The notes beneath the pieces were generated by a model that was not told the origin of the DNA, did not search any database, and worked only from the letters and a program-made list of their open reading frames with translations. A DNA stretch of 55,410 bases, taken from positions 1 to 55,410 of the forward strand of contig JAZNOU010000008.1 in NCBI GenBank assembly GCA_045589295.1. Reading direction: 5' to 3'. Of the stretch, positions 1,696 through 21,989 are shown piece by piece. This DNA comes from Clostridia bacterium. Its GTDB lineage: Bacteria > Bacillota > Clostridia > RGIG6154. The translations under genes and the position numbers were made by a program. Numbering within the stretch: position 1 is the stretch's first letter; each line of letters starts with the position of its first letter.

Positions 1696-2499
1696 ATGTC
1701 AGAATTGAATAGCATGATTAATATATTGTATGAACAGTATTATAAATGCTATCCATATATGGAAAGAATACCTGTCAATATAGAGTTCACAGATGATTTG
1801 ACTAAGAAGCATCTTGAATTGCGTTCAGATATAAAGGAACGCTTAATTGAAGAGGACATTGATTCTCAAAAATATTTTAATGGGAGAATGGTGCCTCCTT
1901 ATGACATTACAGACAATATAAATATATTGCTTAATACAAATAAAGTTATACAGTATTGTAATGATGGTTCATTCACATGGATTGGTACTTTTGCACATGA
2001 GTTGACACATGCAATAGATTTTTATATGATGGCACGAAAAGAAAATTTAAAAACTTATGACACATTGCAAGAACGTTCTATATATTTAATGTTCCAACTG
2101 TGGTCGGAATATCACGCAAGAAAACTTGGATATAATTTTTTGAGAAAAGTATTAGGAGTTGACGAGCATACATCATGTTCCAGCCAAGAACGAATTGACC
2201 ATATTAAGAATACAGAATGGCCTGAACACAGAAAACGTCATTTTGAAGAGTATCACCAAAACAGAAATGGAAATAATCAAATGTATATAACAATGCAACT
2301 CCTTGGACGTTATTCGGTTTGGTGTGATTTGTTTCCAGATAACTTTAATGAAGATGCTTTTGCTAGAGACTTCATAAATGAAACGTGGATGTGTCATTTG
2401 TTTTCATTTATGAGACAACATGAAACATTAGACACTATATATGGTAATTTCGACTTAATGGAATCGATAATAAATGAAAACTGGCTATTAGGAAAATAA
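1696..2499 (+). CDS. HExxH zinc-metallopeptidase-like hypothetical protein (start uncertain, ORF open from 1645)
   Basis: FAHELTHAID motif followed by WSEYHA (candidate third ligand). Confidence 0.55.
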   Translation: MSELNSMINILYEQYYKCYPYMERIPVNIEFTDDLTKKHLELRSDIKERLIEEDIDSQKYFNGRMVPPYDITDNINILLNTNKVIQYCNDGSFTWIGTFAHELTHAIDFYMMARKENLKTYDTLQERSIYLMFQLWSEYHARKLGYNFLRKVLGVDEHTSCSSQERIDHIKNTEWPEHRKRHFEEYHQNRNGNNQMYITMQLLGRYSVWCDLFPDNFNEDAFARDFINETWMCHLFSFMRQHETLDTIYGNFDLMESIINENWLLGK

Positions 2500-2795
2500 A
2501 ATAATTGGAATGAATATTTAGAACACGTTAATATCTTACAAAGATTGTTTACTGCCTAGGGTTATAAATATTTGGAGCCTATAAAACTTAAAAAGAAAAT
2601 GCATCATAATACAGCAATTATAAGCAAAGATGAAATAACCATAAATGATATTATAAATAGATCACCAGAAACACTTTATCCGATTGATAAAAATTTTGAA
2701 AATTGGACAAAGTCACCCGTGGAGCGTTGATGGGTTTATAGAATGTTGTTTGAAAATTAAGAATAGATACTGATTTAATAATAAATGGTGAAATT

Positions 2796-3824
2796 ATGGA
2801 CAAGAAAGAACTTAAAGTAAAATTAAAAACCTACCAAAAGGATAGCATTAAAAAAAGTATATTTGAAACATCAGAAGCTACATATAACAAGGATAAGTGC
2901 ATTACTGGCGGATTAAAAACATTATCTATGCATAATTCTGTTACAAGAGAACTTATCAGTTCTGCATTGGATAAACATAATACCACTAATATCTTTAAAA
3001 GATTACAAGAGAAATTTAAAGAATTATATTCATATGACGCAGACGAATTACAGTTAATAGATAATAGAAGTATGAATATTATGGGAGCATTTATTGATGA
3101 TAAATATGTGTTTTTTGATAGTTTTCTAGAAGAAACACTAAATCCATTCTTTATTATTACAATTATATGGGCTAAATATTTTGATGACAAAGATAAGTAC
3201 GGTAAGTTTTTTAATTATCTGACCGGTGCATTATATGCTGTCATTAAGGATAAAGGTATGTATAATATATACGAAAACCAATACATAAAAGATGAAATAA
3301 GCCAATGGACTAGTACAGTTAATTTGGCGGTTTTCTGTCAATATTTTTGTATGTATTTTTGCTTGGCTCATGAAATTGCACATGGATATATAAAATCAAG
3401 ATCAATGAACTTGAGTTCAAGAGATGAAGAATACAAAGCAGACAGTATTGCTTATGAAGTAGTATTGGGTTTAATGGAAGATGAGGAAGCGTCAAATGTT
3501 TCTGTGCAAGACAGAGAACTGGTTGAATATTGTTATTTAGCTCCAATGATGTTATTTGACATGTGGGATTTGATTTTCTATACAGAGCGTGTATTGTTTC
3601 AAAGGACAATTGTTAATGATTCTCATCCTTCTATTAAAAAGAGAAAGGAAAACTTGTTTTCAATTCCATATGATGACGACAAGTTTAAATTTGATACAGA
3701 AGAAGGAAATGCAGTTTATAATGCATTTACCGATGTTATCGATAAATACAAAACCGAATTATTATATAGGAATGAACGTGGTCAGATAGATGAATTGATA
3801 AGATATATAACGGAAGGAAACTAG
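2796..3824 (+). CDS. Zinc metallopeptidase, M48/U49 (Lit)-like
   Basis: LAHEIAH ... EEYKAD ... SHPSIKKR motif order shared by M48 and U49 peptidases. Confidence 0.6.
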   Translation: MDKKELKVKLKTYQKDSIKKSIFETSEATYNKDKCITGGLKTLSMHNSVTRELISSALDKHNTTNIFKRLQEKFKELYSYDADELQLIDNRSMNIMGAFIDDKYVFFDSFLEETLNPFFIITIIWAKYFDDKDKYGKFFNYLTGALYAVIKDKGMYNIYENQYIKDEISQWTSTVNLAVFCQYFCMYFCLAHEIAHGYIKSRSMNLSSRDEEYKADSIAYEVVLGLMEDEEASNVSVQDRELVEYCYLAPMMLFDMWDLIFYTERVLFQRTIVNDSHPSIKKRKENLFSIPYDDDKFKFDTEEGNAVYNAFTDVIDKYKTELLYRNERGQIDELIRYITEGN

Positions 3825-3829
3825 ATATA

Positions 3830-4393
3830 ATGGATGATAAAAATATTGATGAAATTTTAGAAAAAGTTATTGTTACATTACATGATGAAAGTGTTTCTAA
3901 TAATATTGATAATAGAATCCAAGATGTATTTCTTAAAGATTGCTTCTATGTGGAAAGAAATACAAGCGAACGGAAAAATCTATTATTCTTATCAAAAAAC
4001 TCTTGCTCGGTTAAAATGTCTAATATATCAATTGATTTAAAAAAAGCAATTGAAACAGTCATAGAAGTATATCTTACATCAGAGGTTTCTAATAACATAG
4101 TTAGCGCTATTAAGATGTTTATACTTGTAATAGTTAAAATATTAAATTTATCTACTACAAAAGTAGATAAAGAACAAGCTAATATAATTAGAAAATTACA
4201 TTTAGCTAATGCATATGAATTTCCAATACAAATTCAAAAATTAAAAGAATTGGTAAACGAAGACATAAATAATGAGATGTCCTATCGCAATATAGATAGA
4301 ATACTAGATGAACTATGCCAACTTAAAATAATAGATATCATTGATGAACAAGTCATACTCAAAGAAAAAGTTGTTTTGGATATTGCTCGTTAA
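3830..4393 (+). CDS. Hypothetical protein coupled to peptidase gene; possible C-terminal winged helix
   Basis: 5-bp gap from upstream gene; C-terminal IDRILDELCQLKIIDIIDEQVIL pattern. Confidence 0.55.
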   Translation: MDDKNIDEILEKVIVTLHDESVSNNIDNRIQDVFLKDCFYVERNTSERKNLLFLSKNSCSVKMSNISIDLKKAIETVIEVYLTSEVSNNIVSAIKMFILVIVKILNLSTTKVDKEQANIIRKLHLANAYEFPIQIQKLKELVNEDINNEMSYRNIDRILDELCQLKIIDIIDEQVILKEKVVLDIAR

Positions 4394-5014: not shown

Positions 5015-5073
5015 ATTCCTTCGTTGACTTGCCATCTTTCTTGTGATATTGTATGTGTTGCCAAAGGAGGTGA
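5015..5073 (+). repeat. Promoter+RBS module, copy 1 (similar to 17284-17341)
   Basis: attccttcgTTGACTtgccatctttcttgTGaTATTGTatgtgttgccaaAGGAGGTGa. Confidence 0.7.
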
Positions 5074-5078
5074 CACGA

Positions 5079-5300
5079 ATGGCAAAGTATACATTAGAAG
5101 ATGTTATGTACGGCGACAAGTACGGCATAGAAAGTGCTGTGTTTTCAGAAGTATTCAGGTTGGTTGAACAAAAAGTTGATGCTAAGAAAATACGGGGACA
5201 ACTTAATACGATTTATGTCAAGCACGCACTGCTTGTAGCAAAGAAAATGCACGATGAAGGCGATTGTGTTTCGGATAACGAAATTACAATCGCCTTTTAA
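5079..5300 (+). CDS. Small hypothetical protein (73 aa)
   Basis: AAAGGAGGTG RBS before ATG 5079; own promoter. Confidence 0.6.
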   Translation: MAKYTLEDVMYGDKYGIESAVFSEVFRLVEQKVDAKKIRGQLNTIYVKHALLVAKKMHDEGDCVSDNEITIAF

Positions 5301-5385
5301 CATGTAAATAAAACGCAAATCATTGACAACTCTTATATAATTTATCCTTGGTGGTAAAATAAAAATCAAAGGAGTTGATTCAAAA

Positions 5386-6243
5386 ATGAGAAAAATCACA
5401 AACGAACTAATAACAAAATTTAAAGAATATTTGATTGACGAGGAAAAGACAGTGGCAACACTCGATAAGTATATCAGGGACATAACTGTATTTATGCAAT
5501 GGTCCAATGACAAAGAATTATGCAAGAGCCTTGTGCTGGAGTATAAACAAGAGATAATAGAAAAATACGCACCGGCAAGTGTAAATTCAATTATATCTTC
5601 CCTCAATAGTTTCTTCGTATACAACGAATGGTATGACCTAAAGGTAAAATCTATTAAAATTCAAAAGCAGATTTTTGCTAATAAGGACAAAGAACTCACT
5701 AAAGCAGAATATGAAAGACTGCTCAAAGTGGCGAAGAGTAAAAATAATCAGAGATTATATTATTTAATGCAGACAATTTGTTCTTCGGGTTTGAGAGTGT
5801 CAGAATTAAAATATGTAACTACAGACGCCGTAAGATGTGGTAAGGCAACAATAAACTGTAAAGGCAAAATGAGAATTGTTATACTTCCCAAGCAGCTTTG
5901 TAAAATGCTTAAAGGTTATATAAAGGAAAACAATATAGAAAGCGGTTCCGTATTCGTCAGTAAGAACGGAAAGCCGCTTGACAGGTCAAATATATGGTCT
6001 GATATGAAAAGGTTATGCGAAAGTGCAGGGGTATCAAAAGATAAAGTATTCCCCCATAATCTCCGCCATTTATTCGCACGCACCTACTACTCCCTTCAAA
6101 AAGATGTGGTAAGACTTGCAGATATTCTCGGACATTCAAATGTAAATACTACAAGAATTTATACTATGAGTACTGGCGAAACACATAGGCAACAATTACA
6201 GAAACTCGGGCTTTTGTTGTGTGAAAATAAAAAGACCACATAA
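5386..6243 (+). CDS. Tyrosine recombinase (XerC/D-like), probable invertase for 6235-6487
   Basis: GLRVSEL, HNLRH, LGHS..TTRIY catalytic motifs; AAGGAG RBS; stop codon lies inside the left inverted repeat. Confidence 0.92.
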   Translation: MRKITNELITKFKEYLIDEEKTVATLDKYIRDITVFMQWSNDKELCKSLVLEYKQEIIEKYAPASVNSIISSLNSFFVYNEWYDLKVKSIKIQKQIFANKDKELTKAEYERLLKVAKSKNNQRLYYLMQTICSSGLRVSELKYVTTDAVRCGKATINCKGKMRIVILPKQLCKMLKGYIKENNIESGSVFVSKNGKPLDRSNIWSDMKRLCESAGVSKDKVFPHNLRHLFARTYYSLQKDVVRLADILGHSNVNTTRIYTMSTGETHRQQLQKLGLLLCENKKTT

Positions 6244-6258
6244 TGAGTATTATGTGGT
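6235..6258 (+). repeat. Left recombination site (dif-like palindrome with asymmetric core)
   Basis: accacataa-tgagta-ttatgtggt; its reverse complement matches 6464-6487 at 23/24 positions. Confidence 0.85.
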
Positions 6259-6293
6259 GTAGAAAATTGTAAAATACATAATTTTACTACTAA

Positions 6294-6322
6294 ATTATAC
6301 TATAAAACGAGTAAAAAGTCAA
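6294..6322 (-). promoter_or_regulatory. Sigma-A promoter inside invertible segment, pointing away from the NRPS operon
   Basis: Minus strand TTGACT-ttttactcgttttatag(17)-TATAAT. Confidence 0.8.
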
Positions 6323-6369
6323 TGATTGCGGAATATTTCTAATAATTTTATAAATAAAGACAGCAAAAC

Positions 6370-6404
6370 TAGACCAATAGCAAAAAAAGTAGTTTATTGG
6401 TCTA
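6370..6404. promoter_or_regulatory. Inverted repeat within invertible segment (operator or hairpin)
   Basis: tagaccaata-15 nt-tattggtcta perfect 10-bp arms. Confidence 0.4.
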
Positions 6405-6463
6405 AAAATCATTGAATTTTTGAATATTAATAAGATAACTTAAACCATATATAATCCTGCTTT

Positions 6464-6487
6464 ACCACATAATACTCATTATGTAGT
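6464..6487 (-). repeat. Right recombination site, inverted relative to 6235-6258
   Basis: accacataa-tactca-ttatgtagt. Confidence 0.85.
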
Positions 6488-6514
6488 GTTTATAATTTAT
6501 TGGAGTAAAAATAT

Positions 6515-8065
6515 ATGAAAAACTACGAATTAAATAAAACGCCTTATATAGAGAATTTGAAAGAACTTGTTAATCTTCGTGCTACTATGCCCAACGAAAT
6601 TGCTTTTAAATATAAAAAGAAAAAAGAAATCATTGAAATAACTGCAAAGCAGTTTAAAAATGAAATTGAATGTCTGGGTACATATCTTTACAGTCAAGGA
6701 ATCAAAGACAGTAAAGTTGCTCTTATTGGTGAAAACAGTTATCAATGGATACTTTCATATTTCTCTGTTGCAAATGGCGGAAATATCATTGTGCCCATAG
6801 ATAAAGAACTGTCAAATGATGATATTGCAGACTTAATTAAGCAAAGTGGTGCTGTCGCTCTTATATATGCAGACAGCTATTCTGATATTGCAGATGAGCA
6901 CAAGCACTTACAGTTGTTCAATATGAAAGAGTTTGATACATATGTTTCCGAGGGCAAAAAACTCATTGATGATGGTAGCAAAGACTTTGTTGATTATGAA
7001 ATCGACAATAAAAAACTTTGCTCTATCATATACACATCGGGTACAACCGGAAAACCAAAGGGTGTGATGCTTTGTCATAAGAATTTTGCAGCGGATATTA
7101 TAAGCTCTTGTGAGAACGTATATATTGCTGGTTCATCAATGCTTACTCTTCCTTTGCATCATACCTTTGCATTTTCTACGAGTGTTCTCTCAATGCTTTT
7201 AAAAGGTGTCTCGATTCCTATAAATTCAAGTTTGAGAACATTCAAGCAAGACTTAAAAGATTTCAAACCGCAGAATATGTTCTTAGTTCCGCTTTATGTG
7301 GAAACTATGTATAAAAATATATGGACTACCGCAGATGAACAAGGCAAAACAAAACTTTTAAAGACAATGCTTAAAATAAGCAATGCTTTGCGTAAGGTTG
7401 GAATTGACATCAGAAGAAAAGTTTTTAAAAGTGTTCTTGATGCCTTTGGTGGAGAACTTGATTTAATTGTATCAGGCGGTGCTCCGATAAATGAAAAGTA
7501 CACAAAATGCTTTGATGATTTGGGAATTAAAGTTCTTAATGGTTATGGCATAACAGAATGTTCTCCCGTCGTGGCAGTAAATAGAAACGAAAACCCTGTA
7601 AATGATAGTGTCGGTCTTCTTCTTTCTTGCAATAAGGCAAAGGAAAAAGACGGAGAAATTTTAGTCAAGGGCGATAATGTTATGCTTGGTTATTATGAGG
7701 ATAAACAAGCAACAAAAGATGCCTTCGATGACGGATGGTTTAAAACCGGAGACCTGGGTTATATCAAAGATAATCATTTGTTTATCACCGGAAGAAAAAA
7801 GAACCTTATCATACTTTCAAATGGTAAGAATGTATCTCCCGAAGAACTTGAAGAAAAGATTCAATTGATTGAAAATGTTATTGAGGTTTTAGTATATGCA
7901 GAAAATGATACCATTACCGCAGAAATATACGCAGAAAACACTGATAACATTCAAAATGATATAAATGAACTGAACAAATCTTTACCGCTTTATAAGCAGA
8001 TTTCAAAGGTAAAGTTCAGAGATACAGAATTTGTGAAAACAACAACAAAAAAGATTAAAAGATAG
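6515..8065 (+). CDS. Long-chain fatty acyl-AMP/CoA ligase (AMP-binding enzyme)
   Basis: IIYTSGTTGKPKG, GYGITE, FKTGDLG, GRKKNLIILSNGKNVSPEELE. Confidence 0.9.
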   Translation: MKNYELNKTPYIENLKELVNLRATMPNEIAFKYKKKKEIIEITAKQFKNEIECLGTYLYSQGIKDSKVALIGENSYQWILSYFSVANGGNIIVPIDKELSNDDIADLIKQSGAVALIYADSYSDIADEHKHLQLFNMKEFDTYVSEGKKLIDDGSKDFVDYEIDNKKLCSIIYTSGTTGKPKGVMLCHKNFAADIISSCENVYIAGSSMLTLPLHHTFAFSTSVLSMLLKGVSIPINSSLRTFKQDLKDFKPQNMFLVPLYVETMYKNIWTTADEQGKTKLLKTMLKISNALRKVGIDIRRKVFKSVLDAFGGELDLIVSGGAPINEKYTKCFDDLGIKVLNGYGITECSPVVAVNRNENPVNDSVGLLLSCNKAKEKDGEILVKGDNVMLGYYEDKQATKDAFDDGWFKTGDLGYIKDNHLFITGRKKNLIILSNGKNVSPEELEEKIQLIENVIEVLVYAENDTITAEIYAENTDNIQNDINELNKSLPLYKQISKVKFRDTEFVKTTTKKIKR

Positions 8066-8081
8066 ATTGGAGAAATTGACA

Positions 8082-8294
8082 ATGTTAGAAAGAATTGCAG
8101 AAATACTTTCAAAATATACAAAAGAAGAAATCACAGTAGAATCTACTCTTGTGAATGATTTGGGACTGTCGTCATTTGACATAGTGTCAATTGTAACAGC
8201 ATTTGAAGATGAATTTGACATAGAAATTTCAGACAGAGATATCCGTACGCTTGTATCTGTTGCAGATATCATGGACTACATCGAAAACAACTAA
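8082..8294 (+). CDS. Acyl carrier protein
   Basis: DLGLSSFD phosphopantetheine-site motif, EDEFDIEI; GGAG RBS before ATG 8082. Confidence 0.9.
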   Translation: MLERIAEILSKYTKEEITVESTLVNDLGLSSFDIVSIVTAFEDEFDIEISDRDIRTLVSVADIMDYIENN

Positions 8295-8310
8295 TTGAAA
8301 GGAACAGCTA

Positions 8311-9525
8311 ATGTATCATTTAACAAAACCACAAAAACTAATATACGATATGGAAAAATTTGCAGGCGGTAGCATTGCTACGGTCTGTGGCAGTATTATC
8401 ATAAAAGGGAAAAAAGATATTGAAACACTTTCAGATGCAGTAAATGAACTTTACCGTTTTAATGATGCTTTAAGAATCAAAATTATTGAAGAAGATGGTA
8501 TTCCATATCAAATTATAACAGAATATAAAGAACAAGAAATCAATGTGCTCCGCTTTAAAGATAAAGTAGAGCTTAACAATTATGCAGAAAAATATGCCAA
8601 AGAACCTATGGACTTTTATGGTTCTCTTTGTGATGCCAATATCATAGTCTTAGAGGATAGTTATGGCATACTCGTAAAGCTCCATCACATTATTAGCGAT
8701 GCATGGACGCTTTCCTTAATCGGGAACCAATTTAATGCTTTGCTAAACGGTGAAATTCCAGAGGTATATTCATACTTTGATTATGCTACATCCGAGAACG
8801 AATATATCGAAGGCAAACGATATCAAAAGGATAAGGCGTATTTTATCGATAATTTCAAAAAGTGTGATGAAGTTACATATTTATCGGATAGGCAATCAAA
8901 ATCTGCTGTTACAAACCGAAAAACTTTTGTTGTAGACAAAAACATAACCTCAAAAATCGTAAAATATGCCGGATGTCAAAACACTTCCGTATTTATGGTG
9001 CTTATGACTGCGGTCGCAGTCTATATAAACAGAGTTAAAATGAACAAGGAAAAGTTTTATATCGGCACGGCTGTTTTAAATCGTTCTAATATACAGGAAA
9101 AGAATACAATGGGAATGTTTATAAACACTATTCCTATGCTTATTGAACTTGATAATGATAAGACTTTTGAAGAAAATTTAGAGAACATTTCCAATGAATG
9201 TTATGCAGTTCTTCGCCATCAAAAATTTAATTATGGAGATATACTTTCTACACTCCGTAATGAGTTTAAGTTTGACGGCAATCTTTACGATGTTATGCTT
9301 AGTTATCAAAATGCAAAAATAGTCGGTGAAAATTTTGAAAGCACCTGGTATCACTGCGGAATGTCTACAGATAGTTTGGAGATTCATATTGATGACCGTG
9401 ATAGTGAAGGTATCTTTAAAATTCATTATGATTATCAAGTTGAAAAATTTACAGAAAATGAAATCGAGAGAATGCATGGGCATATATTTAATTTGCTGTT
9501 TGATGCAATGAGTTGGTTCAATTAA
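8311..9525 (+). CDS. Stand-alone NRPS condensation domain
   Basis: LTKPQKLIY start, HHIISDAW active site, MGMFINTIP, RHQKFNY motifs. Confidence 0.9.
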   Translation: MYHLTKPQKLIYDMEKFAGGSIATVCGSIIIKGKKDIETLSDAVNELYRFNDALRIKIIEEDGIPYQIITEYKEQEINVLRFKDKVELNNYAEKYAKEPMDFYGSLCDANIIVLEDSYGILVKLHHIISDAWTLSLIGNQFNALLNGEIPEVYSYFDYATSENEYIEGKRYQKDKAYFIDNFKKCDEVTYLSDRQSKSAVTNRKTFVVDKNITSKIVKYAGCQNTSVFMVLMTAVAVYINRVKMNKEKFYIGTAVLNRSNIQEKNTMGMFINTIPMLIELDNDKTFEENLENISNECYAVLRHQKFNYGDILSTLRNEFKFDGNLYDVMLSYQNAKIVGENFESTWYHCGMSTDSLEIHIDDRDSEGIFKIHYDYQVEKFTENEIERMHGHIFNLLFDAMSWFN

Positions 9526-9542
9526 TCATAAGAGGTAACGCA

Positions 9543-12482
9543 ATGCAAAAGAAAATAAGTGAGTTAAATATGTTATCTTTTGAAGAGGAATGCATATTGA
9601 AAAACCAATTTAATAATACTTCTGCAGACTACCCAAGGGATAAGTGCGTCCATCAGTTGTTTGAAGAACAAGTATTGAAAACACCGGAGAAGACTGCGCT
9701 TATTGCTTGTGATAAAACACTAACATATGATGAACTGAATAAACTTTCAAATAGAATTGCGAATAGCTTAATCGAAAAAGGGGTTAAGGCAAATGATATT
9801 GTTGCCTTTGCTCTGCCGAGAACGAGTTTTCTGATTGCAGTTATGTTTGGCATACTTAAAGTAGGTAGCGCGTACATGCCGATTGATCCTAATTATCCTC
9901 AGGACAGAATCGATTTCATGCTTGAAGATAGCAGTGCAAAATTCTTTATTACTGAAAGCAATTTAAATGAATTTATTTCAGACAATGAAGAAAAACCTAA
10001 TGCTAAAGTTTCGTCTGATAATTATTGCTACTGTATTTACACATCGGGTAGTACCGGGAAACCAAAGGGAGCATTATTGTATCACAAAAACATTGTAAAT
10101 CTCGTTAAGAAACTTGATTTATATAGCAATATAGACGAAATCAAGATATTCGGATTTTTAACAACAATTACTTTTGATGTTGCAACACAAGAAATATTGA
10201 CAGCATTATTGAATGGTTTTACAGGTGTGCTATTTCCTGAAAGACGAGAAACTCATGTTAATGAAATTATAAACTTAATTCAAGCAAACAATATCGATAT
10301 TATATATGCAACACCATCATATTTTGATACAATTACTTCTGTTGAAACGGCTGCAAAAAAATTGTTATCTCTATTGAAAACGGTTGTATTAGCTGGCGAA
10401 CAATTTTATCTTAACGATATAGTAGAAAAATTAAGTAAAAGCTGCAATGTGGTTTTTGAAAATCAATATGGTCCGGCGGAAACTCACGTTGTAACAAGTG
10501 CTCATATATATGTGAATAAAACAAAGAAAATTTGTGAACTTAATATCTTATCAAAAAAAGAAAAAAATACTCTTCTTTACGATTTTAATAATACTTCTGC
10601 AGACTACCCAAGGGATAAGTGCGTCCATCAGTTGTTTGAAGAACAAGTATTGAAAACACCGGAGAAGACTGCGCTTATTGCATGTGATAAAACTCTTACT
10701 TATGATGAATTGAATAAACTTTCAAACAGAATTGCAAACAGTTTAATTGAAAAAGGCATTAAGGCAAATGATATTGTTGCCTTTGCTCTGCCGAGAACGA
10801 GTTTTCTGATTGCAGTTATGTTTGGTATACTTAAAGCAGGTAGCGCGTATATGCCTATTGATCCTAATTACCCGCAGGACAGAATCGATTTTATGCTTAA
10901 CGATAGCAATGCGAAATTCTTTATTAATGAAAGCAACTTAATTGAATTTATTACAGATGACGAAGACAATCCGAATGTAGAAATTACATCTGATAATTAC
11001 TGTTATTGCATTTATACATCAGGTTCTACTGGCGTTCCAAAAGCGACAGTAATAAAGCATTACAGTTTAGTAAATTATTGTTTTAGAAATTATGCAAATG
11101 AAATCATAAATGTAATTAATGACCTAAATTGTCAGAACATAATTTGCATAAACAATGTATGTTTTGATGCCTTTGTGGACGAAACATTTTTATTTTTGTT
11201 AGATGGAAAAACTGTGATTTTAGCTAATGAGAAGCAAATATCTAACTCTGACTATTTTGAAGACTTGGTTCGTACACATAATATTGATGTGATTTCAACT
11301 ACCCCATCTAAATTCAAGGTCTTGGTTAAAAGTCCTGTTCCATTTAAACTTGTGGTGCAAGGTGGCGAAGAATTGACTATTGAACACATCAATTATATTA
11401 ATAAATATTCGAACTCAGTTATTTTTAATACATATGGACCAACAGAAACCACAGTCGGTTGTACATGTGCATGTTCTGATTGTAAATTAAATGAAGCCAA
11501 AAAAATAACTGAACTTGCTATTTTGTCTGAAAAAGAAAAGAATACTCTTCTTTTCGACTTTAACGACACAAAAGCAGATTACCCAAGGGATAAGTGCGTC
11601 CATCAGTTATTTGAGGAACAAGTATTGAAAACACCTGATAAAACTGCTGTTATCGCCTGTGATAAAACCCTTTCGTATGATGAACTGAATAAACTTTCAA
11701 ACAGAATTGCAAACAGCTTAATCGAAAAAGGGGTTAAGGCAAATGATATTGTTGCCATTGCTTTGCCGAGAACGAGTTTTCTGATTGCAGCTATTCTTGG
11801 TATACTCAAATCAGGAGCAGCTTATATGCCAATTGATCCTAACTATCCTCAGGACAGGATAGATTATATGATTCAAGATAGTGGTTCAAAATTGTTTATT
11901 ACAGAAAACAATTTAAAAGAATTTATTTCTACTAATGAGAGCAACTCATCTAAATATGTGGCTGCAGAAAATTTTTATTGTGTTATATATACATCAGGGA
12001 GCACGGGAAGACCTAAAGGATGTATCTTGACACATAAAGGAATTGCGAATTTTTGTTTAAATAATAATGTAGTCAATTATGCCGAAAAAAATAACATTAA
12101 TTTAATAGGTGCATCTGTAAATAATGTTACATTTGATTATTTTATTGCAGAGAATATCGTGCTGTTATTACGAGGACATACAACCTTGTTATGCGATGAT
12201 AATTCTTGCATAAATTCAGCGCTATTTGCAAATTTGTGTAAAAAATATAATGTAAATATTATGCAGACAACACCTACAAAATATAGAATTCTCGCGGAAC
12301 CATTCCCCGAAATACTGAAAAAGATGGAAATTATCGTAACAAGCGGTGAACCTTTAACGGATGAATTATACTGTTTTATGGTAGAAAATTCAAATGCAAA
12401 AATATTTAATCCTCTCGGTCCTAGTGAGTGTTCTGTTTGGGATTTGGGCGGAGATATGCATTGGGAGGGATATTCAAGATGA
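9543..12482 (+). CDS. Protein of three tandem N-terminal adenylation-domain halves (motifs A1-A5 only)
   Basis: AGAGGT RBS and ATG 9543. Three times L(T/S)YDELN / YTSGSTG.PK / FD / (Y/L)GP.E; no A6-A10, PCP or C between units. Confidence 0.88.
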   Translation: MQKKISELNMLSFEEECILKNQFNNTSADYPRDKCVHQLFEEQVLKTPEKTALIACDKTLTYDELNKLSNRIANSLIEKGVKANDIVAFALPRTSFLIAVMFGILKVGSAYMPIDPNYPQDRIDFMLEDSSAKFFITESNLNEFISDNEEKPNAKVSSDNYCYCIYTSGSTGKPKGALLYHKNIVNLVKKLDLYSNIDEIKIFGFLTTITFDVATQEILTALLNGFTGVLFPERRETHVNEIINLIQANNIDIIYATPSYFDTITSVETAAKKLLSLLKTVVLAGEQFYLNDIVEKLSKSCNVVFENQYGPAETHVVTSAHIYVNKTKKICELNILSKKEKNTLLYDFNNTSADYPRDKCVHQLFEEQVLKTPEKTALIACDKTLTYDELNKLSNRIANSLIEKGIKANDIVAFALPRTSFLIAVMFGILKAGSAYMPIDPNYPQDRIDFMLNDSNAKFFINESNLIEFITDDEDNPNVEITSDNYCYCIYTSGSTGVPKATVIKHYSLVNYCFRNYANEIINVINDLNCQNIICINNVCFDAFVDETFLFLLDGKTVILANEKQISNSDYFEDLVRTHNIDVISTTPSKFKVLVKSPVPFKLVVQGGEELTIEHINYINKYSNSVIFNTYGPTETTVGCTCACSDCKLNEAKKITELAILSEKEKNTLLFDFNDTKADYPRDKCVHQLFEEQVLKTPDKTAVIACDKTLSYDELNKLSNRIANSLIEKGVKANDIVAIALPRTSFLIAAILGILKSGAAYMPIDPNYPQDRIDYMIQDSGSKLFITENNLKEFISTNESNSSKYVAAENFYCVIYTSGSTGRPKGCILTHKGIANFCLNNNVVNYAEKNNINLIGASVNNVTFDYFIAENIVLLLRGHTTLLCDDNSCINSALFANLCKKYNVNIMQTTPTKYRILAEPFPEILKKMEIIVTSGEPLTDELYCFMVENSNAKIFNPLGPSECSVWDLGGDMHWEGYSR
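9609..12020 (+). repeat. Three-copy direct repeat, period 975 bp; conserved ~0.45-kb 5' block of each unit
   Basis: acccaagggataagtgcgtccatcagtt at 9631, 10606, 11581; A3 motif acatc at 10041, 11016, 11991. Confidence 0.9.
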
Positions 12483-13099
12483 ATGATGATCAAAAATTTA
12501 TTTATAAAAAGTTAAGAGAAGAAGTTATGGATTTGGTTAAGAGACAGGATACTTATTTGCTTGCAGCATACACCATAACAATTACTATATGGACAGTAGC
12601 TGTTGAAAGAAATAATCCATGGATTGCATTATTACCATTATTTATTTTGTTTGTAATATCTTTAAGAATATGTGATTTTAGAGATAGTTCTGCCTTTCTA
12701 TCTGCATATATTTCCATCTGGTTAGAGAAAAAGCCTGGAATTGGTTGGTCTTATACGAGAGAAAAGTATTTTGAAATAATAAAGAACAAAGAAAGAACCA
12801 AAAGGAATATTTGGATACGATTATTAGACAAAACAGGTAAATATCTTTCACGAATGAGTCTTTGCGTGTTGAGCATTGTTAGTATTGCTCTCTTTTGGAA
12901 AATGCGTGAATCCCATTTTGACAGTTGTCAAAATATCTTTAAAAATATGTTAATTGTGAGTATTCAGTTGATTGTTCTGATAATTCAAATATATAAGTGG
13001 TGTAAATATGTTGATACTACTGAAGTTAAAAAAGAATATATGGACAACTGGAAAACTGTATGTAATATAATAATACAAGAGGAAAAAGAGGAGCATTAA
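12479..13099 (+). CDS. Multi-pass (about 4 TM) membrane protein of unknown function
   Basis: GGAGGG RBS, ATGA overlap with upstream stop; two pairs of hydrophobic segments. Confidence 0.75.
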   Translation: MNDDQKFIYKKLREEVMDLVKRQDTYLLAAYTITITIWTVAVERNNPWIALLPLFILFVISLRICDFRDSSAFLSAYISIWLEKKPGIGWSYTREKYFEIIKNKERTKRNIWIRLLDKTGKYLSRMSLCVLSIVSIALFWKMRESHFDSCQNIFKNMLIVSIQLIVLIIQIYKWCKYVDTTEVKKEYMDNWKTVCNIIIQEEKEEH

Positions 13100-13101
13100 A
13101 A

Positions 13102-15132
13102 ATGATAGATATACATATCGGCAAGCCAATTGCCAACACACAAATTTACATAGTTGATAAATATATGAACATTGTTCCAATTGGTGTTACAGGAGAACTT
13201 TGTATTGCCGGAGACGGAGTCGGTGCTGGATATTTAAATAGACCTGAACTGACTGCAGAAAAGTTTATTGACAACCCCTTTGGTGAGGGTAAATTGTACA
13301 AAACTGGAGACCTTGCATATTGGCGTGAAGATGGTAATATTGCATATGTTGGCAGAAATGACTTTCAAGTTAAGATAAGAGGTTTAAGAATAGAACTTGG
13401 TGAAATTGAAAGTGCCATAGATTCTGTGGAAGGTGTTTCACAGGCTGTTGTTGTGGTGCGTAAAGATGAAAATGGCAGACAACTTATCTGTGCTTTTTAC
13501 ACCCAAAAGCAAGAGGTAGAATTGGTTGATATTAAGAAATCTATATTGGATAAACTCCCTAAATATATGATGCCACATATATTCACAGTTTTAGAGGAAA
13601 TGCCTTTAACTCCGAGCGGAAAAATTAACAGAAAGGCGTTGCCGGAGGTTGATTTAACCAACATTTCAAATGATGTAGAATATATAAAACCTCAAACCCA
13701 TATGCAGATAGCTCTTGCATCAATTATGGAAAATGTATTGAATTATTCTCCAATTGGACTAAATGATAATTTCTTTGATTTAGGCGGAGATTCGTTAAAA
13801 GCGATAGAATTCGTATCAAAAGCACATGGTGAAGGTATATATTTTAATCTTCAAGATGTTTTTGATAATCTAACTCTTGAACAATTGTGTGAAAGTATAG
13901 AAAACAACGATAAACAAAACGTTTCCTTTGCGGATGTCGATTTCACAAAAATCAATAAGATTTTATCTAAAAACAAGACAGAAAACATAAGTGTATCCAA
14001 AAGAAACGAAGTTGGAAATATTCTTCTTGCAGGAGCAACAGGCTTTTTAGGCATGCACTTGCTTTCCGATTTCCTTTATAATGACACCGGAATTGCATAT
14101 TGCCTTGTACGTGGCATTGATACAAAATCTGCAAAAGAGAGATTCTATGAATTATTGCATTTCTATTTTGGAGAAAAATATGATAATAGTGACAGAATAG
14201 TTGTTATTTGTGCAGACTTACATAAAGAAAAATTTGATTTGACTGACACAGAATATAACATGTTGCTTTCAAATATTGACACTGTAATAAATGCAGCCGC
14301 AACAGTTAAACACTATGGCTCTTACGAATATTTCTATGAAGCAAATGTTGAAACCGTACATCAGTTGATTGACTTCTGCAAAAAATCAAATGCCAAACTT
14401 ATTCATACATCAACATTAAGTGTTTCAGGCAACAGCTTTGAAGAATATGAAAATAACAACGAAATGCGTTTTGGAGAAGATAATTTGTATATTGGACAAC
14501 CTCTTGATAATGTGTATGCGCGCAGCAAATTTGAGGCAGAAAAAGCAGTTCTTGAGGCTATGAGTGATGGTTTGCATGCAAACATCATGCGAATGGGTTT
14601 TCTTTCAAACCGTTATAGCGATTCTGTGTTCCAGAGGAACTATGAAAGCAATGCTTTCTTAAAGCGTATTATGGCTATTATCAAACTTGGAATGATACCA
14701 AAAAGTTTTGAGCAAATGCCAATTGAATTTACTCCCATTGATTTAGCGGCAAATGCAGTTATGATAATTACAAGGAATTTTAATAATTACTTTAATGTAT
14801 TTCATATCTGCAATGTAAAAACCATTCCTATGGGACAAGTGATTAACTATTTGCAGGAACTCGGTATAAAGGTCAATGTGATTGAAGATGTTGAGTTTTA
14901 CGATACTTTAAAAAATATTAAGCAAAATAATGAAAATAGCAATATTTTTGAGGTGTTTGCAAACGATTTTAAAGACGGCAACAAATTGGATTATTCAAGT
15001 AAAATAGTTCTTGATAATGACTTCTCTGTTGAGTATTTAAAACAACTTGGTTTTGAATGGTCTGATATTGATTTTGAGTATATAAAGAGATATATTGAAT
15101 ATTTCAAAAAAATTGGGTATTTGGAGGTGTAA
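13102..15132 (+). CDS. NRPS: C-terminal half of adenylation domain (A6-A10) + PCP + thioester reductase
   Basis: Starts IGKPIANTQIYI; GELCIAGDGVGAGY, YKTGDL, GRNDFQVKIRGLRIELGEIE, PSGKINR; FFDLGGDSL; GATGFLG and YARSK; GAGGAG RBS. Confidence 0.92.
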   Translation: MIDIHIGKPIANTQIYIVDKYMNIVPIGVTGELCIAGDGVGAGYLNRPELTAEKFIDNPFGEGKLYKTGDLAYWREDGNIAYVGRNDFQVKIRGLRIELGEIESAIDSVEGVSQAVVVVRKDENGRQLICAFYTQKQEVELVDIKKSILDKLPKYMMPHIFTVLEEMPLTPSGKINRKALPEVDLTNISNDVEYIKPQTHMQIALASIMENVLNYSPIGLNDNFFDLGGDSLKAIEFVSKAHGEGIYFNLQDVFDNLTLEQLCESIENNDKQNVSFADVDFTKINKILSKNKTENISVSKRNEVGNILLAGATGFLGMHLLSDFLYNDTGIAYCLVRGIDTKSAKERFYELLHFYFGEKYDNSDRIVVICADLHKEKFDLTDTEYNMLLSNIDTVINAAATVKHYGSYEYFYEANVETVHQLIDFCKKSNAKLIHTSTLSVSGNSFEEYENNNEMRFGEDNLYIGQPLDNVYARSKFEAEKAVLEAMSDGLHANIMRMGFLSNRYSDSVFQRNYESNAFLKRIMAIIKLGMIPKSFEQMPIEFTPIDLAANAVMIITRNFNNYFNVFHICNVKTIPMGQVINYLQELGIKVNVIEDVEFYDTLKNIKQNNENSNIFEVFANDFKDGNKLDYSSKIVLDNDFSVEYLKQLGFEWSDIDFEYIKRYIEYFKKIGYLEV

Positions 15133-15134
15133 AA

Positions 15135-15896
15135 ATGAATGCAAATAATACTACTAAAAACAAACATAAATTAAGCTACTCAGAAAAAATACAAATAAGT
15201 ATCAGCATAGTAACTTTATTAGTTACAATATTGGCTTTCTGTATTTCCTTGTCTTCTTTAAGAATAGCAGAAAATAGTTATGAGTACGCTACCGCAGACT
15301 TTACACTTACTCCTAAAGTAGAGAAAATAGGAAACAACTTGATGATTAGTAACCCAGATATTGATTTGTTCGAAATCACAGGTATAAGTGTAAATGGATA
15401 TGAACGTTGGCGTATATACGGAGAACAATCTTCTGATACATTGATGTTTAATATATTCACATACAATCAAAATATTTCTGATAAAAATATACCTAATTTA
15501 AATGAAGTGAATGTTGATTTAAATTATGTGTATCAAAATGAGGGGGAAATCTCTATAAGTGAAGACGAACAACAAAAATTTGAGACAGCATATGATGTTA
15601 ATATTGCTAATTTGCAAGGAAAAGCTGAAATGCAATTTAGAGATAAAATCTATGAAATAGATGTCGAGTACACAAACAAAAATAGTTATCATCGAGAGAT
15701 AGCAGAGCTCAATGTAATACTAGATGGTAATGGAAATGTTGATAAAATAACAATTACTGATCATTTTAGCTATAGACATACCGTTTTTAATTTGGCCGAT
15801 AACTATAAAGATTTCAGTTTGGCTTGGCAAGATGTTATAACACATGTTGAATCGCTATCACAACGACCTGCCTGGGTGCCATATGAACAAGAATAA
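15135..15896 (+). CDS. Hypothetical protein with N-terminal transmembrane anchor
   Basis: GGAGGTG RBS, 2-bp gap after NRPS; hydrophobic IQISISIVTLLVTILAFCISL. Confidence 0.7.
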   Translation: MNANNTTKNKHKLSYSEKIQISISIVTLLVTILAFCISLSSLRIAENSYEYATADFTLTPKVEKIGNNLMISNPDIDLFEITGISVNGYERWRIYGEQSSDTLMFNIFTYNQNISDKNIPNLNEVNVDLNYVYQNEGEISISEDEQQKFETAYDVNIANLQGKAEMQFRDKIYEIDVEYTNKNSYHREIAELNVILDGNGNVDKITITDHFSYRHTVFNLADNYKDFSLAWQDVITHVESLSQRPAWVPYEQE

Positions 15897-15899
15897 TAT

Positions 15900-16466
15900 A
15901 TGATATACATAGTAAAAATAGATAAGAGCATTGATGAAAATGTTTTAAAATATCTACTCAGGTTTGTTCAAACGGAAAAACGAGAGCGTATTTTAAAGCA
16001 AAAAGTAAAACAAAATACTGATAATATGCTTATAGGTGAAATTCTTGCAAAAGTAATTATTAAAAAGACTTTTGGCATTGGTATTGCTCAACAAGAATTT
16101 GCTTATACAGAATGTGGGAAACCATACCTGCCTAATCACCCCGATGTTCATTTTAACATCAGCCACTCAGGAGAATATGTTGCTTGTACTGTATCTAATA
16201 AACCTGTTGGAGTTGATATTCAAAAGATTGGCGAATACAATTCTGATGTTGCAAAAAGAGTTTGCAATGAAAAGGAACTTGTTCAAATTGAAAACAGTTT
16301 AGATAGAGCATCGGAATTTACAAAACTATGGGCACAAAAAGAATCAGTTCTGAAAATGTATGGAACTGGTATCGCCGGTGGTGATATTAAAAATTGCCTT
16401 AATAGTTATAATGTTCAATCAGAAAGAGTAGAAGATTATTGGGTGAGTGTTAGTATTTATAATTAA
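15900..16466 (+). CDS. Sfp-type 4'-phosphopantetheinyl transferase
   Basis: GKPY, FNISHSG, GVDIQ, W..KES..K..G motifs. Confidence 0.9.
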   Translation: MIYIVKIDKSIDENVLKYLLRFVQTEKRERILKQKVKQNTDNMLIGEILAKVIIKKTFGIGIAQQEFAYTECGKPYLPNHPDVHFNISHSGEYVACTVSNKPVGVDIQKIGEYNSDVAKRVCNEKELVQIENSLDRASEFTKLWAQKESVLKMYGTGIAGGDIKNCLNSYNVQSERVEDYWVSVSIYN

Positions 16467-16476
16467 TTATAAAGTA

Positions 16477-16510
16477 TAGCTCATATGGAGTTCAATTTCC
16501 ATATGAGCTA
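16477..16510. terminator. Terminator hairpin between convergent genes, ending the NRPS operon
   Basis: tagctcatatgga-gttcaatt-tccatatgagcta 13-bp stem. Confidence 0.7.
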
Positions 16511-17283: not shown

Positions 17284-17341
17284 ATTCCTTCGTTGACTTC
17301 CGCCTCTTCTTGTGGTACTGTTTGTGTTGCAAAGGAGGTGA
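17284..17341 (+). repeat. Promoter+RBS module, copy 2
   Basis: attccttcgTTGACTtccgcctcttcttgTGgTACTGTttgtgttgcaaAGGAGGTGa. Confidence 0.7.
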
Positions 17342-21082: not shown

Positions 21083-21989
21083 TAAGTTTTCGACGAGGGT
21101 GTTTACGCTTTAATATCTGTTTTTGTTTTGCGGTAGAAACATGGGTATATATCTCTGTTGTGGTTATTGAACTATGTCCTAAAATTTGCTGTATATAGCG
21201 GATATCCACATCCGACTCAAGAAGCATTGTGGCGAAGGTATGTCTAAACATATGCGGTGTCACATGCACTGTAGATGAAATTTGATTTACATATTTGTTT
21301 ATCATAAAACGAACTGATTGATCGGAAAGACGATTTGAAAGTCTGTTTACAAAAAAATATCCTGTATCATCAATTTCAGCCTTAAAGCGTTTTTTGTATT
21401 GCTTTAAGGCTGTTAGTACATCAGGAGTGCAAATCTGGATTATTCTTTCCTTTGAGCCTTTTCCAAATGTTTTTATATAACTATCCGAAAGATTAACATC
21501 TTCTATTTTTAAATTACAAAGTTCCGACACACGAAGTCCTGTTGCAAACAGCAGCTCTAATACGGCTATATCCCTGATAATACACTTTTCAGAGTATGGT
21601 GTTTTACATTCTTCTAAAGATAAATAGGCCTTATTTAAAATTTTTGTAAGTATCTTTTCAGGAATAGTCTTGGGTAATATAACCGGCTCTTTAATTTTAA
21701 AATGAATTTTACCGAACGGGTTATCATCAATTAGTTCTTCGTAGGTAAGATATTCGAAAAATGCTTTTAGTGAAGCAAGTTTTCGTTTAATGGATTTTGG
21801 CTTGTATTTTGAATGTAAACTTTCGAGATAATTACATATTAACTCTTTGTTAGAACAATTTTGCTGATTTCTTGTAAACCTTTCAAATTGTTTTAGGTCT
21901 ATACTATATGCTTTTACTGTTTTAGGGTTAAGACCTTTTTGCAACTCACAATAAAATAAGTAATTTTTTATTAAACTTTGTATTTGCAT
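21066..21989 (-). CDS. Tyrosine recombinase (XerC/D-like), probable invertase for 18417-21082
   Basis: TGLRVSEL, GKGSKER, HMFRH, LGHS..TTEIY; GGGAG RBS before ATG 21989. Confidence 0.92.
   Translation of the reverse strand: MQIQSLIKNYLFYCELQKGLNPKTVKAYSIDLKQFERFTRNQQNCSNKELICNYLESLHSKYKPKSIKRKLASLKAFFEYLTYEELIDDNPFGKIHFKIKEPVILPKTIPEKILTKILNKAYLSLEECKTPYSEKCIIRDIAVLELLFATGLRVSELCNLKIEDVNLSDSYIKTFGKGSKERIIQICTPDVLTALKQYKKRFKAEIDDTGYFFVNRLSNRLSDQSVRFMINKYVNQISSTVHVTPHMFRHTFATMLLESDVDIRYIQQILGHSSITTTEIYTHVSTAKQKQILKRKHPRRKLNINKG

Follow-up and report, generated by a model that had tools for sequence, protein, structure and literature searches.

A 55,410-nt stretch of DNA from a Clostridia bacterium (assembly GCA_045589295.1, contig JAZNOU010000008.1), which was analysed at its full length and is called here the window, holds a 205-bp segment (6259..6463) with a promoter inside it and an inverted site at either end, placed between the gene for a tyrosine recombinase and an operon of the nonribosomal peptide synthetase (NRPS) type. 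We consider it likely that this segment, which was assembled in its OFF orientation, is a recombinase-linked invertible promoter (inverton) and that it inverts and gates the NRPS-type operon. While the kind of switch is already known, its NRPS cargo is the new part.

The site pair and the adjoining recombinase

Each of the two sites is composed of a 9-bp arm, a 6-bp core, and a second 9-bp arm. The left site (6235..6258) reads ACCACATAA-TGAGTA-TTATGTGGT, with its core at 6244-6249, and the right site (6464..6487) reads ACCACATAA-TACTCA-TTATGTAGT, with its core at 6473-6478. Because the arms of both sites are palindromic, it is only the 6-bp cores, which are reverse-complementary to each other, that reveal the sites as inverted. 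When aligned as inverted repeats, the sites match at 23 of 24 positions, the sole mismatch being at 6485, where the outer arm of the right site has A in place of G, and according to a repeat finder the inverted repeat spans 35 nt with 89% complementarity (6224-6258 with 6464-6498). The start-to-start spacing is 229 bp. With up to three mismatches allowed, the arm pattern occurs at two places in the window, both being these sites, as compared with a mean of 0.07 in shuffled windows and two or more occurrences in none of 100 shuffles. Genome-wide (1.54 Mb in 22 contigs), these two places are again the only ones.

The recombinase gene (5386..6243, plus strand) adjoins the sites and in fact overlaps the left one, as its TAA stop codon (6241-6243) lies within the left arm. 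It encodes a presumed invertase of 285 amino acids (aa) (Pfam Phage_integrase, 7e-30), in which the full catalytic set (R137, K161, H224, R227, H250, and Y259) is kept, so that a dedicated recombinase with intact active-site residues stands next to its putative sites. Its alignment with structures of archaeal XerA and XerC-like proteins (PDB 4a8e, XerC-like, 7e-21) spans the entire protein. Its best NCBIfam matches are XerA/XerD-like, every one of them below the cut-off (138 bits against 220 for XerA, 126 against 330 for XerD, and 107 against 335 for XerC), and the FimB/FimE-type "tyrosine-type DNA invertase" models gave 39 bits (PRK09870, cut-off 221) and 28 bits (PRK09871, cut-off 222). Since no NCBIfam cut-off was reached, the recombinase is, as judged from its sequence, an unclassified Xer-like protein. 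We found no close paralogue of it in its own genome, the four other tyrosine-recombinase matches there being 23-30% identical.

Between the sites, the best promoter match of the region 5100-6700 is a sigma-70-type TTGACT-17-TATAAT on the minus strand (6322..6294; 11 of 12 consensus positions), which is directed toward the recombinase gene, and beyond the right site the first gene of the operon starts at 6515, 27 nt away. Much of this had been described in an earlier note made from the letters alone, namely two 24-bp palindromic sites with asymmetric 6-bp cores, a recombinase that ends inside the left site, the minus-strand promoter, the nearby start of the first NRPS gene, and an OFF label for the present orientation, and on all of these points our analysis agrees with it.

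Inversion among related loci

Relatives of the locus were sought by tblastn with the recombinase against one genome per prokaryote species, whereby at least 381 were confirmed, and the best 80 of these (67-95% identity) were analysed as loci. All 80 come from metagenome-assembled genomes. Clostridia or Eubacteriales is the label of most, many have isolate names that point to animal guts, and one bin, to which two of the contigs are assigned, is labelled Gastranaerophilaceae. In 67 loci, a site pair with the arms seen in the window was found immediately past the stop codon of the homologous recombinase, with a site spacing of 189-418 nt (mostly 220-275). The other 13 comprise seven with one site near a contig end, four with one site and no second found by the pattern, and two with no site. 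Among the 67 pairs, in which the arms are conserved, we counted 39 different left-hand cores, and in all 67 the two cores are exact reverse complements, with not one direct or mismatched pair. Conserved arms combined with variable but matched cores would be the expected signature of a tyrosine recombinase site pair, unlike what unrelated hairpins would be expected to give.

Together with the window, these 67 loci make a set of 68 switches, and each interior carries one near-consensus promoter (a clear best one in 63 of the 68), whose -10 end lies 20-56 nt (median 37 nt) ahead of one site. The promoter is directed toward the recombinase in 46 switches, the window included, and toward the cargo in 17, with five unclear, and the gene past the right site shares the strand of the recombinase in nearly all loci. 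Moreover, of 44 locus pairs with strongly similar interiors, 20 are mutually inverted and 24 have the same orientation.

The closest orthologue of the window locus, L018, is the most telling case. Its recombinase is 95% identical at the amino-acid level (tblastn; 769 of 858 nt), its cores are identical to those of the window, it has the same G-to-A mismatch in the arm, and the flanks are identical on both sides. Its interior, however, matches that of the window at 180 of 209 positions when inverted, as against 126 of 232 in the same orientation. An interior inverted between identical flanks, with the same mismatch, suggests that inversion has taken place with precisely this version of the sites after the two lineages parted, unless the mismatch arose twice. 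The covariation of the cores, the promoters found both ways round, and the inverted interior of L018 thus bear out the earlier proposal of an inverting switch, and the single orientation among homologues that had been named as grounds for abandoning it is not what we found.

Relatives have several site copies per genome. In nine loci (L046, L050, L062, L065, L071, L074, L082, L086, and L087), a third copy lies 32-33 bp from one of the two sites, and such copies would permit nested or alternative inversions. Three loci (L017, L019, and L022) have recombinases 93-95% identical to that of the window, with cores CTGAAA, TATAGA, and TACGGA, and other cargo, which implies either that cores change faster than the enzyme or that cassettes have been exchanged. 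The idea that different cores insulate the switches of one genome from each other was unsupported, as L021 and L030 are in the same genome and have the same core. Viral contigs scanned with the right-site/leader string gave no matches.

Hairpins and predicted terminators around the promoter

If the interior were inverted, the main promoter would be projected onto the plus strand at ~6400-6428, facing the operon. By folding, the minus strand of the left site gives a hairpin of -10.5 kcal/mol that is followed by CTTTTTATTTT, and the site also appears terminator-like in the terminator scan; from this design, we predict that the left site and its T-tract serve as a terminator for OFF-direction transcripts. 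By folding, the RNA hairpin of the right site reaches just -3.9 kcal/mol, being weakened by the outer-arm mismatch at 6485. A like asymmetry is found across the family, in which at least eight T in the 12 nt past the site occur on the recombinase side in 50 of the 68 switches and on the cargo side in seven, so that recombinase-ward transcripts should stop at the site and cargo-ward ones should read through. A further hairpin (6369..6405, minus strand, -11 kcal/mol) lies upstream of the promoter and is followed by a T-rich run on the promoter strand, making it a possible insulator terminator. In L018, its stem is retained and its loop is altered, and a family-wide test for an internal terminator did not discriminate (39 versus 32 of 63).

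The NRPS-type operon

The cargo consists of eight genes (6515-16466, ~10 kb) with intergenic gaps of -13 to +16 nt and one strong terminator, this being a bidirectional one with a 14-bp stem at the operon end (16477..16510). All eight genes are on the plus strand. The first, preceded by GGAG at 6502-6505, encodes an adenylating enzyme of the acyl-AMP/CoA ligase type (6515..8065; Pfam AMP-binding, 3e-56), to which the NCBIfam long-chain fatty-acid ligase models match below their cut-off, and it is followed by genes for a carrier protein (8067..8294; Pfam PP-binding, 5e-10) and a stand-alone condensation domain (8311..9525; Pfam Condensation, 5e-59). Next is an open reading frame (ORF) with three in-frame tandem copies of the N-terminal part of an adenylation domain at a period of 975 nt (9513..12482), then a hydrophobic 206-aa ORF (12479..13099), and then a gene for the rest of the adenylation domain, a carrier, and a thioester reductase (13102..15132; Pfam AMP-binding at profile positions 343-384, AMP-binding_C, PP-binding, and NAD_binding_4). 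The last of these proteins matches the AusA model at 9e-154, below its cut-off, and TIGR01746 with 201 bits against a cut-off of 213. A 253-aa ORF with no Pfam or NCBIfam match (15135..15896) and a gene for a 4′-phosphopantetheinyl transferase (PPTase) (15900..16466; Pfam ACPS and AASDHPPT_N) complete the operon.

The NRPS nature that the earlier note had assigned to the operon is well founded, as acyl-AMP ligase, carrier, condensation, adenylation, second carrier, thioester reductase, and PPTase domains are all present, and among them is the domain set of a reductase-terminated NRPS (condensation, adenylation, carrier, and terminal thioester reductase). The operon does not have the two modules of a dipeptide assembly line, as the condensation domain, the C-terminal part of an adenylation domain, and the carrier for an amino acid each occur once, and the first gene is of the fatty-acyl-ligase type and is paired with a carrier of its own. 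From this single condensation domain and single amino-acid carrier, we would expect an N-acylated amino aldehyde, composed of one amino acid and an acyl starter.

Nor is the second adenylation domain of the operon contiguous. It is split past the NxYGPxE motif into three pocket-bearing N-terminal copies within one separate 989-aa ORF and a C-terminal part in the 676-aa protein with carrier and reductase. Over the first 160 aa, the three copies share 73-86% identity (116-138 of 160), and their pocket regions are strongly divergent. Eight database proteins of 676-684 aa have the same split point, and among public proteins two or three front-half copies are found by themselves, following a condensation domain, or as part of a single ~1,700-aa protein. 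As tandem or split front halves recur in this way, the arrangement looks selected and not decayed. A split adenylation domain has a precedent in corallorazine (PMC11342130). Rather doubtful, in our estimate, is the idea that the one back half works in trans with three alternative front halves, so that the switch would gate a combinatorial assembly line. The split, triplicated adenylation domain may be a more novel feature of the window than the switch.

The hydrophobic 206-aa ORF is wedged between the two adenylation halves and is translationally coupled on both sides, its ATG overlapping the preceding stop codon (ATGA); it has no Pfam or NCBIfam match. Homologues of it (~30% identity) are the first cargo gene at three of the related switches (L060, 6117-6692; L080, 6130-6681; and L096, 6132-6683).

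Cargo of the related switches and distribution of related NRPS loci

The first cargo gene could be surveyed in 63 of the 67 loci with a site pair, there being no ORF before the contig end in the other four, and with the window this gave 64 first cargo genes. Their Pfam tallies were led by TetR (10), SPFH with zinc ribbons (six), the Listeria-Bacteroides repeat (five), and SLH (three), and other first-cargo domains included subtilase, LRR, dockerin/cohesin, and collagen repeats. Overall, this switch family is common in uncultured gut Clostridia and usually controls surface proteins. An AMP-binding domain in the first cargo gene was found in the window alone among the 64, and so NRPS cargo appears unusual for the family. 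At L026 (6145-10443) and L055 (6187-10831), the switch is followed by an acyltransferase and then two AMP-dependent ligases, and at L071 one AMP ligase is the second cargo gene (2100-3833). These three loci represent a second kind of cargo that is not a surface protein, and condensation or reductase domains are absent from them.

A metagenome scan with the first operon protein returned three loci of 22-52% identity, none with a site. In a search of the order (18 genomes), the acyl-ligase query matched only ligases of ~40% identity and the reductase protein had no match outside its own genome, and neither NRPS cluster was found in the 17 other species of the order. In a sample of the class, homologues were frequent, occurring in 52 of 399 genomes scored, at 42% identity or less, and these loci stop short of the operon starts.

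Genomic context

The window begins inside a relaxase gene (1-576), with the locus downstream of it, and a second tyrosine recombinase is encoded at 21105-21920. The same genome has a paralogous NRPS as a single condensation-adenylation-carrier-reductase (C-A-T-R) gene for 1,405 aa (C2:8445-12659), followed by genes for a TPR protein and a PPTase. This paralogous region (G000:C2:3730-17800; L159) is switch-less and likewise lies downstream of a relaxase gene. Its flanks have 68-76% protein identity to those of the window, and its adenylation N-terminal part just 43-49%. Between the relaxase gene and the paralogous NRPS is a gene for a 913-aa protein with HD, HD-associated, and PRTase-CE domains (G000:C2:5065-7806; L159 2066-4807), which may be a defence-type gene.

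A 57-nt promoter- or leader-like element (TTCCTTCGTTGACTT...GGAGGTGA) has three genomic copies, two in the window (5016-5073 and 17285-17341) and one at C2:16831. The copy at C8:5016 precedes a 74-aa ORF without a known family, and the one at C2:16831 precedes a DUF6809 gene, a paralogue of which lies past C8:17285. The two copies in the window are direct repeats that bracket the recombinase and operon, and homology between the window and the L018 contig starts exactly at the first of them. We rejected an island bounded by inverted repeats, as the 57-nt element is in direct orientation and is also present past the switch-less paralogue. The unit of switch and NRPS looks like the cargo of a mobile element.

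Proposed mechanism and alternative explanations

In the mechanism that we propose, the Xer-like tyrosine recombinase would bind the conserved 9-bp arms of both sites, the sites would be paired, and strands would be exchanged across the identical 6-bp cores via Tyr259, with inversion of the 205-bp interior. In the present orientation, the transcript from the main promoter would end at the hairpin of the left site and its U-tract. Once the promoter is inverted, transcription would start near 6435, and the ON transcript, with a leader of ~80 nt, would read through the weakened right-site hairpin to the ribosome-binding site of the gene at 6515 and would drive the eight packed genes up to the terminator. 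The outcome would be a subpopulation that makes a product of the N-acylated amino-aldehyde type, with most cells silent.

Several observations weigh against this interpretation. At the population level, orientation was taken from the assembled contigs, not the reads, of four public runs (X1-X4), and none of the 23 runs listed was an RNA run. Those contigs of X2 (record 6149-6486) and X4 (record 6353-6599) that bridge a site do so in the OFF orientation. The same runs also give a weak hint of inversion: in X1, X2, and X4, contigs are interrupted at both sites (no X3 contig covers the right one), and in an X1 contig 6464 is preceded by nine loose letters, the last eight of which are those of the predicted flipped junction. 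The ninth, however, fits the predicted junction of neither the window nor L018, and this contig may derive from a different organism with the same site. No joining of the ON form to the NRPS was seen, since only 18 nt of the L018 contig lie beyond the right site, and a search of the L018 genome (G041) for NRPS found only a related switch-less cluster on C150, with a different upstream region. Such a site is likewise found upstream of none of the four related NRPS loci for which there is upstream sequence (L097, L098, L137, and the genome's own paralogue L159). At the transcriptional level, a weaker promoter-like TTAATA-17-TATAAT on the plus strand inside the segment (6427..6455; 10 of 12 positions) faces the operon in the OFF orientation and is a possible source of basal operon expression, and neither the terminator scan nor folding found a plus-strand terminator between the recombinase gene and the operon. 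The two together suggest that OFF may be leaky, meaning low and not zero operon expression. This locus is also among the seven of 68 with a T-rich tail past the cargo-side site, and some ON transcripts may end there. Lastly, the split, triplicated adenylation domain makes it uncertain what the assembly line produces and even whether it is active.

The transcriptional points among these also favour a reading in which the switch is real and merely modulates, with NRPS expression in either orientation, driven by transcripts that run on from the recombinase gene or by the match at 6427-6455, and with inversion shifting the level. The plus strand has no T-run past the left site or the internal hairpin, and the T-rich tail of the right site could attenuate ON transcripts. 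Nevertheless, matches of this quality are at chance level in such AT-rich DNA (eight found at the locus against 7.4 expected, and 61 against 56.9 in a further count), no consistent second promoter was seen in the other family members, and a terminator that the family has on the recombinase side only fits ON/OFF gating, so that we regard mere modulation as unlikely. Rather less probable is a fossil switch, in which the cassette came with a mobile element and no longer inverts, the operon being permanently silent or driven otherwise. The arm mismatch at 6485 and the X2 and X4 contigs that bridge the OFF orientation only would suit it, yet the recombinase ORF is intact with all its catalytic residues, the cores are still perfect reverse complements, and L018 has the mismatch in the opposite orientation, which calls for inversion with this site version or for a mismatch that arose twice.

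The recombinase might instead be an integrase or resolvase of the surrounding mobile element, with att- or dif-like sites and no promoter switch. Such a role would go with the position of the locus downstream of a relaxase gene, which is shared by the paralogous NRPS, with the Xer-type family matches, and with the 57-nt direct repeat that brackets the recombinase and operon. It is at odds with sites that are inverted, 229 bp apart, and next to the recombinase stop codon in 67 of 80 loci with very different cargo, and with interiors that flip between orthologues; moreover, the 57-nt element is also found past the switch-less paralogue in C2, and the window encodes a second tyrosine recombinase. 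We therefore hold this explanation to be very improbable. Hardly credible is the view that the palindromes are ordinary hairpins (terminators or attenuators), alike by chance or duplication. Both sites do fold, and the left one scores as a terminator, but the loops of such hairpins have no reason to be mutual reverse complements, as they are in 67 of 67 pairs with 39 cores, and the arm pattern is not expected by chance.

Comparison with known systems

The E. coli fimS switch has the same layout as this locus, with the tyrosine recombinases FimB and FimE encoded beside an invertible segment of ~300 bp whose promoter drives the neighbouring operon one way only. The fim system has 9-bp repeats, recombinases that form a separate small family, and fimbrial cargo, and the recombinase of the window is far below the cut-offs of the FimB/FimE-type models. 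In Cre/lox and FLP/FRT, palindromic arms bind the recombinase and an asymmetric spacer, which must match between sites, gives direction, so that inverted sites lead to inversion. The site logic is the same here, but the arms (9-10 bp) and the core (6 bp) differ, and this family has 39 natural spacer variants, with different cores beside near-identical recombinases (93-95%). The earlier note had likened the sites to Xer dif sites, and this holds for the site design but no further, as the scores of the recombinase stay below the XerC/XerD equivalog cut-offs and there are two inverted sites 229 bp apart instead of a single site per replicon.

Closest in kind is inverton group 139 of Jin et al. 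(2025, Microbiome; PMC11892184), which according to the main text has 33 invertons, 32 of them in Clostridia, and is linked to the tyrosine "invertase group 35". The example given from Clostridium sp. D5 has 26-nt repeats that are 231 nt apart start to start, and flipping of the group was measured in culture and in mice (PMC11892184). The window resembles this group in its Clostridia host, its adjacent tyrosine recombinase, and its geometry (repeats of 24-26 nt, 229 nt apart), and the switch is probably a member of inverton group 139 and invertase group 35, a match made by host, recombinase, and geometry and not by comparison of the repeat motif. The main-text passages of that article on group 139 do not mention biosynthetic clusters as regulated genes.

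For NRPS-type metabolites, the passages on the mad switch of Photorhabdus describe an invertible promoter that decides which cell variant makes certain of these compounds (PMC5384830). There, a fimbrial and regulatory locus is switched and the metabolite clusters are affected indirectly through the P or M cell form, whereas here the promoter abuts the biosynthetic operon itself. In the literature, we found no invertible promoter directly at an NRPS or other biosynthetic cluster, though the supplementary inverton lists of PMC11892184, which lay outside the search, may hold one; in that no directly wired case was found, the earlier statement that invertible promoters are little known for NRPS clusters is upheld. 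As for the cargo, reductase-terminated NRPS clusters of gut Clostridia are described as making (acyl-)dipeptide aldehydes such as ruminopeptin (PMC12327764). The operon is like them in its Clostridia host and its condensation, adenylation, carrier, and terminal thioester reductase domains, but differs in having one condensation domain, one amino-acid carrier, and a split adenylation domain, and no switch is reported for the known clusters.

Biological significance

Reductase-terminated NRPS clusters of gut Clostridia yield protease-inhibiting peptide aldehydes, and a cluster wired to a DNA flip-switch would provide one concrete way by which a few cells engage in such chemistry while most stay silent. 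As a single case among the surveyed loci, it offers no general explanation for silent clusters. Were the combinatorial reading true, one operon would let a flipped subpopulation release a few different N-acyl amino aldehydes, and such a line would amount to phase-variable chemical diversity on a mobile element. For practical use, the operon should switch on if the 205-bp segment is locked the other way round. For the family as a whole, the cargo range of a very common switch of Clostridia would be widened from surface proteins to small-molecule biosynthesis.

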